A DNA stretch of 64,000 bases from an uncultured delta proteobacterium (GTDB lineage Bacteria > Myxococcota_A > UBA9160 > SMWR01), in assembly GCA_963832165.1 (NCBI GenBank), contig CAWHTE010000005.1:36850-100849 (forward strand), given 5' to 3'. A program made the translations under genes and the position numbers. The notes below the pieces were generated by a model, which saw only the letters and a list, made by a program, of their open reading frames with translations, was not told the DNA's origin and did not search any database. How positions within the stretch are numbered: position 1 is the first letter of the stretch; the number at the start of each line of letters is the position of its first letter. Below are positions 198-60,947 of the stretch, in pieces.

Positions 198-1607
198 TCA
201 GAGCTGAGCGCTGCGCCTCTCTACATCGGCGGAGAACCCGAGCTTCTTCACCGGGATCCCGACCGGTTCGCCGATCAGCGAGTGCGGCGTCGCCTCGACC
301 ACGTGCACGCGCACGATCGAGCCGGGTTCCACTGCGGCTGCGAGATTTACCACGCGGTGGTAGGGGTCGCGGCCCGACGACTGATCTCCGCGCCGACTGG
401 TGCCCTCGATCAGCACCTCGGTCTCGCTGCCCACGCGGCGCCGGTGCGCCTCGAGCGTGAGGTCGTGCTGGAGGTTCTGGAGCTCGAGGAGGCGCTCCTG
501 CGCGACGCCGGGGTCGACCGGATCGGCGTACCCGGCCGCGGGCGTGCCGGGCCGGGCCGAGTACTTGAACGTGTACGCGTCCACGAAGCCCACGTCGCGG
601 AACAGCGCGAGCGTGGCGCGGAAGTCGGCGTCGGTCTCGCCCGGGAAGCCCACGATCAGGTCGGTGGTGATCGCGACGTCGGGGCGCGCCTGGCGCAGCT
701 GCTCGCACAGCGCGCGGTACGCGTCCGCGGTGTAGGGCCGGCGCATGCGCTCGAGCACCGCGTCCGAGCCGCTCTGCGCGGGCAGATGGACGTGCGGGCA
801 CAGCGCAGCGAGCTCGCCGTGGGCGCGCACGAGGTCGTCGTCGAAGAAGGCCGGGTGCGGGCTCGTGTATCGGATCCGCTCGATCCCGGGCACGTCCGCG
901 AGCCGCCGCAACAGCGCCGCGAAGCTCTCGGTGCCCGCGGCGGCCGCGCGCCCGCGCCGTACGTCGTGGCGGCCGTACGCGTTGACGGTCTGTCCGAGCA
1001 GCGTGATCTCGCATACGCCCGCGTCCGCGAGCTCGCGCACCTCGGCTGCGATCGCTTCCGCGGACCGGCTGATCTCGCGACCGCGCGTGTTCGGGACCAC
1101 GCAGAAGGTGCAGAACATGTCGCAGCCTTCCATCACGGTGACGAACGCGCGCCCGGGCGTCTCGCTCGGCAGGTCGGGGTGGTGCTGCGGCAGATCGAAG
1201 CGCTCGAGCGAGCGATTCTCGTCGGTGCGCAGCCCGCGCACTCCGCGTTCCGCGGACGCGACCAGCGCCGGCACGAAGCGCAGGTTGTGGGTGCCGTAGA
1301 CGAAGTCGACCGCAGCGAAGCGGCGCAGGATCGCGTCGCCCTCCTGCTGCGCCACGCAGCCCGCGACGCCGATCACGCGACCGGGCCGGCTCTCCTTCCA
1401 CTCGCGCAGTCGACCGAGGTCGGAGTAGAGGCGCTGCTCCGCCTTGTCGCGAATCGAGCACGTGTTGATGATCAGGAGATCCGCGTCTTCGAGCTCTGCG
1501 GTCGCGCGATAGCCCTCACCCGACAACAGCGCCGCGACTTTCTGCGAGTCGAGCGCGTTCATCTGACAGCCGTAGGTGCGGATGTGGAAGCGTCGGAGCG
1601 CCGCCAA
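198..1607 (-). CDS. miaB: tRNA-2-methylthio-N6-dimethylallyladenosine synthase (radical SAM methylthiotransferase)
   Basis: TYGCQMN, NTCSIR, GCVAQ, EGCDMFCTFC (CX3CX2C), SPHP, C-terminal TRAM domain. Confidence 0.96.
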   Translation of the reverse strand: MAALRRFHIRTYGCQMNALDSQKVAALLSGEGYRATAELEDADLLIINTCSIRDKAEQRLYSDLGRLREWKESRPGRVIGVAGCVAQQEGDAILRRFAAVDFVYGTHNLRFVPALVASAERGVRGLRTDENRSLERFDLPQHHPDLPSETPGRAFVTVMEGCDMFCTFCVVPNTRGREISRSAEAIAAEVRELADAGVCEITLLGQTVNAYGRHDVRRGRAAAAGTESFAALLRRLADVPGIERIRYTSPHPAFFDDDLVRAHGELAALCPHVHLPAQSGSDAVLERMRRPYTADAYRALCEQLRQARPDVAITTDLIVGFPGETDADFRATLALFRDVGFVDAYTFKYSARPGTPAAGYADPVDPGVAQERLLELQNLQHDLTLEAHRRRVGSETEVLIEGTSRRGDQSSGRDPYHRVVNLAAAVEPGSIVRVHVVEATPHSLIGEPVGIPVKKLGFSADVERRSAQL

Positions 1608-1813: not shown

Positions 1814-1842
1814 TTGACAAGCTTCGCGGGGCCGCTCACAAT
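1814..1842 (+). promoter_or_regulatory. Sigma70-type promoter, TTGACA-N17-CACAAT
   Basis: TTGACA 1814-1819, 17-bp spacer, CACAAT 1837-1842, in an AT-enriched intergenic stretch; no credible plus-strand CDS follows. Confidence 0.7.
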
Positions 1843-1848
1843 GCGTCA

Positions 1849-1985
1849 CAGATCCCGTTTGTGTGGAGCGGCGGTGGATCTGGCATTTCTAATCGAAATG
1901 TCCAACCTCTCACCCCCCATCATCCATCCACCGCCCTCCCCCCTTTGAACAAACGCCCCGTCGAGAAATCGGCGGGGCGTTTTGT
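1849..1985 (+). ncRNA. Candidate small structured RNA of unknown family
   Basis: Lies between a consensus promoter and an intrinsic terminator; stem 1865-1879/1926-1939, inner hairpin 1882-1902, C-rich unpaired segments. Confidence 0.6.
1951..1985. terminator. Intrinsic terminator, probably bidirectional
   Basis: AAACGCCCCGTCGA-GAAA-TCGGCGGGGCGTTT hairpin with T-rich tails on both strands. Confidence 0.8.
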
Positions 1986-2084
1986 CTTCGAGCCCTGCTA
2001 GGCGCGGATCGGCGGACCGTACGGATGCGGGGCGGATGGCTTGCTGCCGAGAAGTAGAGCGCAGCCGGCCACGGGCCGTGACAA

Positions 2085-3509
2085 CTACAGAAGCAGTCCG
2101 TCGACCACCCGCGAGAGCTGGCGGAGGTTCCGGCACTCCTCGGCGACATCCGTGTACGGCAGATACTTGTCCATCACGCTGTCGCCGAAGCCCCAGGCGC
2201 TCGGGTTCTCGGGGTTGAGCCACACCACGTTCTTGGCCTTGTTGTGGATCTCGCGCAGACACCACGCGCGCGGGTCGTTGTAGTTGTTGCGCGCGTCGCC
2301 GAGGATCAGCACCGTCGTCTTGTTGTCGATCGCGGACAGGAAGTTCTGCCAGAAGTGGTGGAACGCGAAGCCGAAGTTCGAGCGCGTGTAGACGTTGATC
2401 ACGTCCCCGCCCTCGAGCGCCTCCTCGATCGCGTCGTTGATGTCCTTCTCCTGGAACAGCGGCGTCACCTCGCCGAGCTCGGCCACGAACACGAACGCGC
2501 GGATCTTCGTGAACGCCTCCTGGAGCGTGTAGACGAACTGGAGCATGAAGCGCGACACGTTCGCGACCGAGGACGAAACGTCCGTGAGGATCACGAGCTT
2601 GGGCCGATCCTTCTTGCGCTGCTTGAAGATCAGCTCGAACGGGATCCCGCCGTGCGGCATGTTGCGGCGCAGCGTCTGGTGCAGGTCGAGCTTGCCGCGC
2701 TTGAGCCGCCGGCGGCGGATCGAGAGCACGTTCTTGATCCGCTGGGCGAGGCGCTCGACCACCTCGCGCATCTTGCGGATCTCCTCCTCGGTGAGGTGGT
2801 AGAAGCTCTTCTCGAGCAGCGTCTCGCGCCGGAACTTCTCCATGTAGTCGTGGTTGTGCTTCTGGAGCTCGCGCTCGGTGAACGAGCGCACGCTGCGGCG
2901 CAGCGCCTCCATGAGCCCCTCGATCAGCCGGCGCAGCGCGGCGATCTGCTCGGGCGACATGCCGGCCGCCTCGAGCCGCGCCGCAAGCTCTTCGAGCTGC
3001 TCCCCCGCGCCTTCCATGCCGAGCTGCTCGAGCGTGCGGCGGCTGAAGAAGCCGACCTGCAGGAAGTTCTCGATCCGGTCGATCCCGGCCTGCTCGGCGG
3101 CCTGGCGGATCAGGTTCTCGAGCTGGGTGAGGTCCTGGGTCAGCAGCGCGCGCGCGAGCTCGGAGAGATCCCCCGAGCTCTCTCCTTCCATGCCCTGGAG
3201 CATCTGCATGATCTGCTGGAGCAGCTGCTCGAAGTCGGCGCCCATCTCGGCCAGGCCCCCGGTGGCCTGGCCGAACGACTCGCGCAGGCTGTCGTAGAAG
3301 CCCGACCAGAACAGGTCGAAGAGCTGGTCGTAGGTGGGGACCTCTTCGCCGCGCTTCACCATCGTGGAGCGCATCGCGTCCTTGAAGATCTCCCGGTCAT
3401 CGAGCGCGAGCTCGTCGAGCGCCGTGAAGGCGTCGATCGCCTCGGCCGTGGAGACGCGGATCCCGCTCTTGCGCAGGATGTTGGTGAACTCGAGGATCTT
3501 CTTCTGCAA
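2085..3509 (-). CDS. VWA-domain protein, CoxE-like
   Basis: N-terminal FTNILRKSGIRVS, LDLHQTLRRN, MIDAS-like DVSSS, LILGDARNN, WLNPE. Confidence 0.9.
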   Translation of the reverse strand: MQKKILEFTNILRKSGIRVSTAEAIDAFTALDELALDDREIFKDAMRSTMVKRGEEVPTYDQLFDLFWSGFYDSLRESFGQATGGLAEMGADFEQLLQQIMQMLQGMEGESSGDLSELARALLTQDLTQLENLIRQAAEQAGIDRIENFLQVGFFSRRTLEQLGMEGAGEQLEELAARLEAAGMSPEQIAALRRLIEGLMEALRRSVRSFTERELQKHNHDYMEKFRRETLLEKSFYHLTEEEIRKMREVVERLAQRIKNVLSIRRRRLKRGKLDLHQTLRRNMPHGGIPFELIFKQRKKDRPKLVILTDVSSSVANVSRFMLQFVYTLQEAFTKIRAFVFVAELGEVTPLFQEKDINDAIEEALEGGDVINVYTRSNFGFAFHHFWQNFLSAIDNKTTVLILGDARNNYNDPRAWCLREIHNKAKNVVWLNPENPSAWGFGDSVMDKYLPYTDVAEECRNLRQLSRVVDGLLL

Positions 3510-3545
3510 GGGGCCACTCTAGGTCGGGCGGATCCGTTGAAGCGC

Positions 3546-3866
3546 CTACTCGCCGGGCGGGGTAGTGCAATCGCCTTCGGAGGTGGCGCACTCGGTCTGG
3601 CAGGCCACCAGGTACTCGTTTCGCGCCGCGGGGGTCATGTCGCTCTGCGACTCGGCGAGACTTTCGCACTCCGCGGCGCACTCGTTGGCGGTGCTCTTGC
3701 AGCACTCCGCCCGATCCGCCGGTGCCTTTTCGAGGCAGGCCTGGAAGGTCTCGTCGTAGTCCGCCGGAAGTCCGAGCGCGGGCGCGGCGACCAGTGTCGC
3801 GAGCGCCAGTCCTCGGGTCAGATGGCCGACACGGCTCCGGCTTCGGAATCGGACATGCTGGATCAC
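3546..3866 (-). CDS. Small secreted cysteine-rich hypothetical protein
   Basis: Signal-peptide-like LALATLVAAPALG, then 8 Cys in about 65 aa; fills the gap between co-oriented MoxR and VWA genes. Confidence 0.65.
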   Translation of the reverse strand: MIQHVRFRSRSRVGHLTRGLALATLVAAPALGLPADYDETFQACLEKAPADRAECCKSTANECAAECESLAESQSDMTPAARNEYLVACQTECATSEGDCTTPPGE

Positions 3867-3879
3867 GTTCGTCCTCCTG

Positions 3880-4869
3880 CTAGTGCAGTGCGCCCTTCTT
3901 CGTGGCTGCAGGCGCCGGCTCGGGCGCCGCGGCCGGCTTGGCGGCGCGCGCCTCGCCGGTCTTCTTCTGGAGCAGCTTGTCGAGCTCCGCTTGCGCCTTG
4001 CGGACGTCGCCCTCGTACTTGAGGATCACGTTGAAGGTCTGGTTCACGAGCTCCGCGTCGAGCTCCTGGGCGTTGAGCGCGAGCAGTGCGCGCGCCCAGT
4101 CGAGCGTCTCGCTGATCGACGGCGTCTTCTTCAGGTCGAGCTGGCGCAGCCGATGCATCATGCCCACGAGATCGTCGACCAGCCCCGCGGCCACGCCGGG
4201 CACCTTCGTCTCGAGGATGCGCTTCTCGAGCTCCTCGTTCGGGAAGTCGATGTAGAGGTGGAGACAGCGGCGCTTGAGCGCGTCGCTCATCTCGCGCGCG
4301 TTGTTCGAGGTCAGGAACACGAGCGGCTTGCGCTTGGCTTCGATCGTGCCGAGCTCGGGCACCGTCACCTGGAAGTCCGAGAGCACCTCGAGCAGGAACG
4401 CCTCGAACTCGGGGTCCGACTTGTCGACCTCGTCGATCAGCAGCAGCACCGGCTCGTCCGAGGTGATCGCGGTGAGCAGCGGGCGCGGCACGATGAAGTG
4501 GTCGGAGAAGAAGACGCTGTCCTCCTTGCCGACGCGCTCGGCGGCCTCGCGCAGCGTAGAGGCCCCGGCCATCGCCTCGGTGAACCTCTCCTTGAGGATC
4601 TGCGTGTAGAGCAGCTGCTTCGAGTACTCCCACTCGTAGAGCGCCTTGGCCTCGTCGAGACCCTCGTAGCACTGCAGGCGGATCAGCTTCCGGCCGGTGG
4701 CCTTCGCGACCACCTTCGCGAGCTCGGTCTTGCCGACGCCGGCCGGCCCCTCCACGAGCACGGGCTTCTCGAGCTTGGCGGCCAGGAACACGACGGTCCC
4801 GATCTTCTTGTCACCGATGTAGTCCTGCGCCGTGAGCTGCTCGAGGACGTCGTCAATCGAATCGAACAT
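3880..4869 (-). CDS. MoxR-family AAA+ ATPase, CoxD-like
   Basis: Walker A GPAGVGKT, RLQCYEGLD, Walker B LLIDEVDK, DALKRRC. Confidence 0.93.
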   Translation of the reverse strand: MFDSIDDVLEQLTAQDYIGDKKIGTVVFLAAKLEKPVLVEGPAGVGKTELAKVVAKATGRKLIRLQCYEGLDEAKALYEWEYSKQLLYTQILKERFTEAMAGASTLREAAERVGKEDSVFFSDHFIVPRPLLTAITSDEPVLLLIDEVDKSDPEFEAFLLEVLSDFQVTVPELGTIEAKRKPLVFLTSNNAREMSDALKRRCLHLYIDFPNEELEKRILETKVPGVAAGLVDDLVGMMHRLRQLDLKKTPSISETLDWARALLALNAQELDAELVNQTFNVILKYEGDVRKAQAELDKLLQKKTGEARAAKPAAAPEPAPAATKKGALH

Positions 4870-4896
4870 GAAGTCTCCGTAGGGCTGGGAAACGCC

Positions 4897-6165
4897 TCAA
4901 CTCATCAGATGAAGGACGTGACCGAGCTTTTCTTTCTTGGTGCGCAGATACTCGAGATTCTTCTCGTTCGGTGCGATCTCGAGCGGCACGCGGTCGACGA
5001 TCGTGAGGCCGTAGCCCTCGATGCCCGCGCGCTTGCCCGGGTTGTTCGTGATCATGCGCATCTGGCGCACCCCGAGGTCCACGAGGATCTGGGCGCCGAC
5101 GCCGTAGTCGCGCAGGTCGGCCGGGAAGCCGAGCCGCTCGTTCGCCTGGACCGTGTCGAGGCCCTCGTCGTCCTGCAGCCCGTAGGCGCGGATCTTGTTC
5201 TTGAGCCCGATCCCGCGCCCTTCCTGGCGCATGTAGAGCAGCACGCCCTGCCCCTCGCTCTCGATCAGCTTCATCGCGGCCTCGAGCTGCTCGCCGCAGT
5301 CGCAGCGCATCGACCCGAACGCGTCGCCGGTCAGGCACTCGCTGTGCACGCGCACGAGCACCGCGTCGTCGGGGCCGATCTCGCCCTTCACGAGCGCCAT
5401 GTGATCGATGTGGTCGATGTCGTTCTCGTAGACGATGCACTTGAACTCGCCGCCCGCGTGCGTGGGCATCATCGCGACCGCGGCGCGCCGCACGAGCTTC
5501 TCCTTGCGCAGCCGGTACTGGATCAGGTCCGCGATGCTGACGATCTTCACGCCGTGCTGGCGCGAGAACTCGATCAGATCGGGCATGCGCGCCATCGTGC
5601 CGTCGTCGTTCATGATCTCGCAGATCACGCCCGCGGGCGTGAGCTCGGCGAGCCGCGCGAGATCGACCGAGCCCTCGGTCTGCCCCGCGCGCCGCAGCAC
5701 GCCGCCCGGGCGCGCGCGCAGCGGGAACACGTGGCCCGGCCGCGCGATGTCGGTCGGCTTCGCGTCGGGAGCGATCGCGGTGAGGATCGTCGTGGCGCGG
5801 TCGGCCGCGGAGATGCCCGTGGTCACCCCGCGCCGCGCCTCGATCGACACCGTGAACGCGGTGCCGAAGCCCGAGGTGTTCTCCCAGTCGGGCACCATCA
5901 TGCCGAGGTTGAGCTTGTCGAGCTGCTCCTCGGTCATCGACAGGCAGATCAGGCCGCGCCCGTAGCGGGCCATGAAGTTGATCGTCTCGGGCGTGACCTT
6001 CTCGGCGGCGACGCAGAGGTCGCCCTCGTTCTCGCGGTCGGCGTCGTCGACCAGGATCACGAGCTTGCCGGCGCGGATGTCGGCGACGGCCGCTTCGACA
6101 GAAGCGATCGCAGCCCGGATCTGCTCCGGGTTCTGCGCGAGCTGAAGCTTGGGCTTTTGGGTCAT
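4897..6165 (-). CDS. ribBA: Bifunctional 3,4-dihydroxy-2-butanone-4-phosphate synthase / GTP cyclohydrolase II
   Basis: [51 protein letters not shown]. Confidence 0.97.
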
Positions 6166-60870: not shown

Positions 60871-60947
60871 TGGTAGCGGTGGTTGGACTCGAACCAACGA
60901 CCTACGGCTTATGAAGCCGCCGCTCTAACCGACTGAGCTACACCGCC
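60871..60947 (-). tRNA. tRNA-Met (CAT), elongator type, CCA encoded
   Basis: GGCGGTGTAGCTCAGTCGGTTAGAGCGGCGGCTTCATAAGCCGTAGGTCGTTGGTTCGAGTCCAACCACCGCTACCA; full cloverleaf; lacks initiator C1:A72 and GGG/CCC anticodon stem. Confidence 0.95.

Follow-up and report, generated by a model that had tools for sequence, protein, structure and literature searches.

Small RNAs (sRNAs) with C-rich seeds, among them RsaE/RoxS of the Bacillales, the loops of RNAIII, the alphaproteobacterial 'cuckoo' RNAs and cyanobacterial Yfr1, use helices to hold open a C/U-rich, anti-Shine-Dalgarno-like motif whose conservation far exceeds that of the helices and whose targets are G-rich ribosome-binding sites. Here, we describe a predicted RNA that would belong to this familiar kind of C-rich-seed translational repressor, encoded in a 64,000-nt stretch of DNA (the window) from an uncultured delta proteobacterium (contig CAWHTE010000005.1, positions 36,850 to 100,849 of the forward strand), with an invariant seed that is complementary to G-rich sequences directly upstream of the start codons of division genes. 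In contrast to the sRNAs named above, its seed forms one side of an asymmetric internal loop, which a 14-bp stem closes, and consists of one long stretch, not of repeated short CCC motifs; it also comes from another phylum and matches no Rfam model.

Among the cases cited here, control of ftsZ by an sRNA is documented only for DicF and DinR of enterobacteria (PMC5069750, PMC10907235). Regulation of ftsZ by DicF, an sRNA of the Escherichia coli Qin prophage, is described as confirmed (PMC5069750), and DinR of Klebsiella pneumoniae, derived from the 3' end of dinI, is reported to occupy the ftsZ ribosome-binding site, repress translation and inhibit division in an Hfq-dependent manner (PMC10907235). 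The RNA described here resembles them in that it is predicted to pair across the ftsZ Shine-Dalgarno sequence and start codon, but it yields no Rfam match to either at E ≤10, although DinR may be absent from Rfam. Whereas DicF is prophage-borne and DinR arises from a 3' end, the present RNA is a single-copy, class-wide part of the core genome with its own promoter; unlike both, it is predicted to target ftsA too, and a MinD/ParA-like gene in some lineages, and in contrast to the Hfq dependence of DinR, no Hfq gene was found in its genome. A regulatory sRNA from the same broad bacterial group, Pxr, controls fruiting-body development in Myxococcus, its targets being given as unknown in the cited text (PMC11928866); it is set apart by this description from the present RNA, which the genomes searched yielded in one uncultured class only.

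Gene regulation is nearly uncharted in this widespread uncultured lineage of soils, sediments and marine habitats, and a single-copy sRNA with a class-wide invariant seed offers a strong, testable handle on its biology. The host class is probably the Myxococcota class UBA9160, of which we know of no cultured member.

A self-contained RNA gene with an exposed C-rich strand

The gene lies on the plus strand of an intergenic region (1608-2084) flanked by two minus-strand genes, with no same-strand gene downstream. Its elements, in window coordinates, are:

1814..1842, plus strand: near-consensus sigma-70-type promoter (TTGACA at 1814-1819, 17-nt spacer, CACAAT at 1837-1842)
1849..1864, plus strand: variable 5' leader, kept within the genus only and differing in length among genera
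1865..1879, plus strand: 5' strand of stem P1, GGAGCGGCGGTGGAT, which pairs with 1926-1939 to form a 14-bp stem
1882..1902, plus strand: P2 hairpin (GGCATTTC, TAATC loop, GAAATGTC), 8 bp, enclosed by P1
1903..1925, plus strand: unpaired C-rich seed strand CAACCTCTCACCCCCCATCATCC, 23 nt, mean unpaired probability 0.94
1926..1939, plus strand: 3' strand of P1, ATCCACCGCCCTCC, placed by fold and alignment
1940..1951, plus strand: C/U-rich linker CCCCTTTGAACA, only moderately conserved in the alignment
1952..1988, plus strand: intrinsic terminator, with a GC-rich stem (1952-1981) and then a U-rich tail to ~1988

The promoter matches consensus at 10 of 12 positions and is the sole promoter-like site in 1500-2200, where shuffled sequences would be expected to give 0.1. 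Transcription would start at ~1849, which predicts an independently transcribed plus-strand RNA of roughly 135-140 nt, spanning about 1849-1988. Folding the plus strand from 1848 to 1985 gave exactly the structure listed above, with a minimum free energy of -60.6 kcal/mol (z = -6.75) and none of 200 shuffles as stable; the minus-strand fold is less exceptional (z = -3.3), although the terminator stem forms there too. A simple terminator scan called none in the region because the tail TTTTGTCTT fails its T-count rule, but the stem is clear in the fold. The terminator faces the 3' end of the convergent flanking gene and may therefore also stop the transcript of that gene.

A reading of this DNA made from the sequence alone (the sequence-only reading) had proposed such a self-contained structured sRNA gene, and its promoter, P1, P2, unpaired strand and terminator were all recovered where it had placed them. 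Its description of the C-rich segment as a loop needs amending: the C-rich strand is indeed exposed, but it belongs to the large asymmetric internal loop that separates P2 from the 3' strand of P1 and not to a hairpin loop.

The genes on either side are all on the minus strand:

198-1607, minus strand: miaB, divergent from the sRNA (TIGR01574, 453.5 bits against a cut-off of 355.3)
2085-3509, minus strand: von Willebrand factor A (VWA) gene, CoxE/MadC-like, convergent with the sRNA
within 2085-6165, minus strand: run of ribBA, an AAA (MoxR/CoxD-like) ATPase gene and the VWA gene, ending at the sRNA terminator

An invariant seed between covarying helices

The helices are supported by covariation among relatives, a check that the sequence-only reading had proposed. 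In 87 distinct sequences fitted to the covariance model, a fit to the structure that itself favours these figures, 98.5% of cells are paired and 18 of 33 pairs show compensatory changes, and not one of 500 shuffles attains these values on any measure; when the partners are displaced by 1-3 columns, pairing falls to 42-56%. An independent analysis of 30 sequences with MAFFT and RNAalifold recovered the same helices. Compensatory changes occur in four pairs of the 11-pair part of P1 (98.8% of cells paired), in two of the eight pairs of P2 and in all 12 pairs of the terminator stem. At several positions G-U alternates with A-U or G-C (one P2 pair is G-U 37 times and A-U 27 times), and these G-U pairs would be C-A mismatches on the minus strand, so that the alternations fit only an RNA read from the plus strand.

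Amid these varying helices, the core of the seed strand, AACCUCUCACCCCCCA (AACCTCTCACCCCCCA, 1904-1919), is invariant in all full-length homologues aligned save one diverged copy, discussed below. The exposed, anti-Shine-Dalgarno-like segment that the sequence-only reading had pointed out is thus the most conserved part of the molecule, and an invariant single strand among varying helices is the signature of a seed that matches something else.

A conserved family confined to one uncultured class

The gene is single-copy in its own genome. BLAST found a match in 37 of 41 relatives, 36 of which cover the window from 1864 onward, that is, P1 through terminator; outside the genus, alignments begin at 1864. 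Two apparent members were set aside: in G032 the BLAST match covers the terminator only and the model match (32.8 bits) combines a tRNA-like stretch with a terminator, and in G103 a short hairpin and terminator match without the seed. Across 401 sampled genomes of the phylum, BLAST matched 75 of the 78 that belong to the class (the window's own genome and 60 of 63 others in its order, and 14 of 14 in the sister order), while in other classes 16 of 323 genomes gave weak matches only, terminator-like or at most 34 nt long. The covariance model agrees: all 28 class genomes match, 26 with scores of 69-143 bits, as do six of 123 genomes outside the class, at 29-42 bits. A species-wide scan for an exact 21-nt motif returned at least 119 stretches, and of 80 loci made from these, 76 score at least 66 bits with the model; the four without a model match are labelled as a cyanobacterium, two Chloroflexi and one Phycisphaerales.

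The surroundings are conserved as well. The order miaB, sRNA, VWA gene holds in nearly all of 47 loci, and a promoter of the form TTGAC-N17-19-[CT]A[TC]A[AC]T was found in the 110 nt preceding P1 at 78 of 107 distinct homologous loci, at distances of 7-81 nt. Since the distance from the -10 element to P1 varies, leaders differ in length, and only the body between P1 and the terminator stays constant.

Rfam 15 at gathering thresholds, applied to the whole window, placed no family at the sRNA locus, in line with the sequence-only reading, which did not recognise it as 6S, SRP, tmRNA, RNase P or a riboswitch. At E ≤10 in the region 1550-2150 the best candidate was Spot 42 (RF00021), at 21.2 bits against a gathering score of 80. 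Both RNAs have a stem-loop followed by a terminator; we rejected membership, as only the terminator and a generic stem align, 45 nt are skipped and the score is far below the gathering score. A literature search by topic and by 13-mer seed and target strings returned nothing on this RNA among the matches listed, the one string match being to an unrelated herpesvirus. We therefore regard it as a genuine, previously undescribed sRNA family, confined in the genomes searched to one uncultured class, and as a ready candidate for Rfam.

As to the host, the metagenome-assembled genomes (MAGs) among these include UBA4427 and UBA6930, which a 2026 preprint assigns to class UBA9160, 'Vahlivitia'. Full sRNA matches were also seen on contigs of MAGs labelled Anaerolineales, Opitutales, Gemmatimonadales and Spirochaetales (L088, L099, L146 and others), and about a dozen sRNA-bearing loci among the matches listed are titled 'Spirochaetales' or 'Spirochaetaceae'; these MAGs are probably mislabelled or mis-binned Myxococcota. 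One genome with 7% contamination, G037, carries two copies of the sRNA (contigs C53 and C569), more likely a strain mixture than a duplication.

The seed is complementary to the start regions of division genes

When sites in the genome were ranked by duplex energy, long G-rich pairings dominated, and exact-complement counts were used instead. The exact complement of the invariant core, GGGGGGUGAGAG, is rare. In the window's own genome, exact complements of at least 12 nt occur at five non-self sites, against none for the reversed control. These sites are:

MinD/ParA-superfamily ATPase gene (321 aa): 15 nt spanning the GTG start codon and its Shine-Dalgarno sequence
small gene on contig C1: 14 nt at the gene start
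ftsZ: 13-nt perfect match ending 1 nt before the ATG
contig C7: 13 nt, elsewhere
nrdJ 3' hairpin: 12 nt, 43 nt after the stop codon

The ATPase scores below all NCBIfam cut-offs; nrdJ was called by NF005122 (1391.7 bits against a cut-off of 859). A 10-nt match is also present at the start of the chromosomal ParA/Soj gene.

The seed core resembles the anti-Shine-Dalgarno tail of 16S rRNA, which in this genome is canonical, ending ...GAUCACCUCCUUUCU (GGAUCACCUCCUUUCU). With a canonical tail, and with GGGGGGTGA occurring only 18 times in the genome, the motif is not the general Shine-Dalgarno sequence of the lineage. The G-run of the targets pairs perfectly with the C-run of the sRNA but with 16S rRNA only by way of two G-U pairs, and the GAGAG(G) extension of the target matches the sRNA only.

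The same placement recurs among relatives. The 12-mer GGGGGGTGAGAG has 88 matches in the 41 relatives, against eight for the reversed control. The sRNA gene itself accounts for 37 of these, and among the remaining 51, whose contexts were assigned by eye, about 35 lie on ftsZ, ftsA, MinD/ParA-like genes or the nrdJ 3' hairpin:

ftsZ start region: about 12
nrdJ 3' hairpin: 12
MinD/ParA-like start region: 6-7
ftsA start region: 4
miscellaneous: the remainder of the 51

Start regions that carry an exact complement of the seed were counted gene by gene, leaving out for ftsZ the genome G011, in which the open frame extended back to the ftsA start:

ftsZ (n=40): at least 9 nt in 28, at least 11 nt in 18
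ftsA (n=38): at least 9 nt in 15, at least 11 nt in 10
MinD/ParA-like (n=40): at least 9 nt in 11, at least 11 nt in 7
miaB, control (n=43): at least 9 nt in 1, at least 11 nt in 0
VWA gene, control (n=7): at least 9 nt in 0, at least 11 nt in 0

The ftsZ matches are always in one register and end 0-4 nt before the ATG, and the MinD/ParA-like matches include six of six genomes of the window's genus. By contrast, in 20 outgroup genomes from other classes that lack the RNA, an ftsZ site of at least 9 nt was found in none, the best matches being scattered, and the 12-mer was at background, with five matches against eight in the control. In the sister order, which has the same seed, 9-10 of 13 ftsZ leaders carry a G-run and GAGA(G) before the ATG, with an interruption of 1-3 nt.

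One relative, G040, departs from the invariant seed. Its homologue (L380:101-243, minus strand) keeps P1 and P2 but carries a different seed (GGUUUCGCCCCCCGAAAU), and its ftsZ leader is changed as well (CUUCGGAGGGGAAAAUGG). The cognate duplex reaches -20.9 kcal/mol, a value attained by 2.9% of shuffled seeds, whereas the canonical seed on the same leader reaches -12.6 kcal/mol, no better than shuffles.

The sequence-only reading had proposed a trans-acting translational repressor, with the ribosome-binding sites of a nearby response-regulator gene and of ribBA as local targets. The comparative target analysis favours such a role, though not through these two genes: their matches (8 nt for the response regulator, and 9 nt including one G-U pair for ribBA) are of a length expected by chance, since the own genome holds 48 non-self exact complements of at least 10 nt, against 33 for the reversed control.

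A complementary hairpin downstream of nrdJ

The fourth recurrent site class differs from the others in its position. Twelve relatives share the pattern GGCGUCUCGA(A/G)C(N0-3)GGGGGGUGAGAG(A/G)CGCC with a terminator behind it. It lies 27-59 nt beyond the stop codon of nrdJ, which encodes the B12-dependent ribonucleotide reductase. The element forms a hairpin with GGGGGGU in the loop and GAGAG in the 3' stem arm, which together are the exact complement of the seed, so that it is a candidate sponge or 3' target of the sRNA. Three of its pairs show compensatory changes, in addition to G-U variants. A looser pattern finds the element in 18 of the 41 relatives, against one control match. The NrdJ tail precedes it in eight of the 12 loci by pattern and in three more by eye (SGCS and stop only); one locus shows nothing. 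The loci lie outside the window:

window's own genome: L236:603-732, minus strand (contig C1, ~295,470-295,600)
other loci: L205, L206, L209, L212, L215, L218, L221, L223, L227, L230 and L233

It is conceivable, though on present evidence rather improbable, that the sRNA and the nrdJ element form a dedicated RNA-RNA pair in which the nrdJ 3' end acts as sponge or target, tying deoxyribonucleotide supply and replication status to the translation of FtsZ, FtsA and partition-type ATPases. If this were true, the pair would constitute a cell-cycle checkpoint made of RNA and encoded in the core genome of an uncultured Myxococcota class.

Proposed function and alternative explanations

We favour, with a probability of roughly 0.55, the explanation that the RNA represses division genes in trans, probably without Hfq, by means of its anti-Shine-Dalgarno-like strand. 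P1 and P2 would keep the 23-nt C-rich strand open, and its core would pair perfectly with the unusual G-run Shine-Dalgarno region GGGGGGUGAGAG(G), which throughout the order precedes the start codons of ftsZ and ftsA by 0-4 nt and, in the window's genus, also precedes the MinD/ParA-like ATPase gene. The resulting duplex of 12-15 GC-rich base pairs is predicted to mask the Shine-Dalgarno sequence and start codon and to exclude the 30S subunit, and the synthesis of division proteins would then fall. Hfq (PF17209) was not found in the own genome, an absence that is not proven because the genome is 89% complete; this, together with the long GC-rich duplexes, suggests that the RNA probably acts without Hfq. 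No clue was found to the signal that controls the promoter.

How the gene is built, conserved and oriented, the covariation of its helices and the non-random position of seed complements are established by the data, and the predicted core regulon of division genes is well supported; transcription, pairing in vivo and the repressive direction are inferred. Regarding transcription, each of 24 sequencing runs contained less than 0.3 of the sampled words, and six RNA libraries contained small shares of the stretch. Contigs from three of four soil and sediment RNA libraries carry the core of relatives, covering 1862-1941 at depth 4-7, which speaks to presence only and not to ends, strand or transcription; the depth of these contigs and the gaps in their cover are no gauge of expression level. 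If the regulon (ftsZ, ftsA and partition-type ATPases, with a possible link to nrdJ) is true, it would represent core-genome, vertically inherited RNA control of the divisome. The RNA also provides a clear instance of an anti-Shine-Dalgarno mimic whose counterpart, a G-run Shine-Dalgarno sequence, is itself unusual.

Several observations weigh against this explanation, and some of them would fit a real, conserved sRNA for which the ftsZ and ftsA matches are mere G-rich Shine-Dalgarno sequences and whose true role is that of a protein decoy or sponge (for a binder of C/U-rich strands) or lies with other mRNA targets. The invariant stretch (GAAAUGUCCAACC...) is ~25 nt long, more than the 9-15 nt that any predicted duplex needs, which may point to additional targets or to a protein partner. 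Pairing of GGGGGGUGA with the canonical 16S tail is possible via two G-U pairs, so part of the conservation may reflect ribosome binding alone. Complementarity is weak in the sister order, where only one of 14 ftsZ sites reaches 9 contiguous bases, and median duplex energies (-26.3 kcal/mol in the own order, -21.8 in the sister order and -16.5 in the outgroup) overlap; moreover, nine of the 12 non-self perfect 12-mers of the sister order stand directly before the ATG of assorted small genes, some of them duplicated. Among the 40 relatives, 12 have an ftsZ site whose uninterrupted complementarity is shorter than 9 nt, and in the window's own genus ftsA has only GGGGGGAGA. In addition, orthologous sites share ancestry and their counts are not independent events, gene starts were set by simple rules and not by a gene finder, the co-variation in G040 is a single case and therefore a hint only, and contigs from RNA libraries can derive from DNA, the flanking VWA gene being covered too. 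A role unrelated to the division genes is thus possible, but we regard it as somewhat unlikely: the sRNA, unlike 16S pairing, accounts for the GAGAG(G) extension and for G instead of A in the run, outgroup genomes that lack the RNA contain the 12-mer at background level only, four recurrent site classes make up most of the non-self matches, and control start regions of the same genomes lack the motif.

Explanations that do not involve a regulatory sRNA fare worse against the same data than repression of division genes. A diverged housekeeping RNA, for instance a 6S-like RNA that binds RNA polymerase, would agree with the single copy, strong promoter and class-wide conservation, and 6S RNA (RF00013) was not detected in the own genome, which is 89% complete, with a model that detects 6S in only five of 14 control genomes. 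We consider it very unlikely, as a molecule of about 120 nt with one 14-bp stem and an asymmetric loop is not the ~180-nt rod with a central bubble of 6S, the region gives no 6S match at E ≤10, signal recognition particle RNA is located elsewhere in the genome (C11:122348-122447) and gene starts carry specific complements of the conserved single strand. It is similarly improbable that the region is a cis element, whether a bidirectional terminator serving the VWA operon on the minus strand or a regulatory region for the divergent miaB. Such an element would be expected to keep its synteny with both neighbours, as is seen, and the terminator stem folds on the minus strand with a U-rich stretch after it; against this, conservation is higher in the ~90 nt that precede the terminator than in the terminator, and the promoter is conserved too, which counts against the idea that the hairpin merely terminates the minus-strand operon. 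The C-A mismatches that P1 and P2 would contain on the minus strand, a promoter directed away from miaB and seed complementarity in only one of 43 miaB start regions likewise speak against a cis role. Finally, two short open reading frames overlap the region (1814-1948, 44 aa; 1861-2001, 46 aa), but a small protein gene is hardly credible: single-base indels between homologues break every frame and so exclude a coding frame, as the sequence-only reading had judged, what is conserved is the nucleotide sequence, which lacks a third-position pattern, variation tracks base-pairing, and no Shine-Dalgarno sequence with an ATG start is present.

Additional observations

In one genome of the sister order, G226, two small genes are each present in two identical copies (L360/L376 and L378/L379) with the 12-mer directly before the ATG; these may be mobile or phage genes that share an unusual ribosome-binding site. 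A ~50-nt repeat, GCTGCGGCTCATGGCTCGCCGGCCTGGGGGTGACGTTCTCTCTCGCCCGAA..., occurs at nine places in the window's own genome (contigs C3, C4, C8 and C11) and may be a mobile-element end or a repeat of the repetitive extragenic palindromic (REP) type. Within the window, the only Rfam match at gathering thresholds is a tRNA gene at 60874-60947 on the minus strand.

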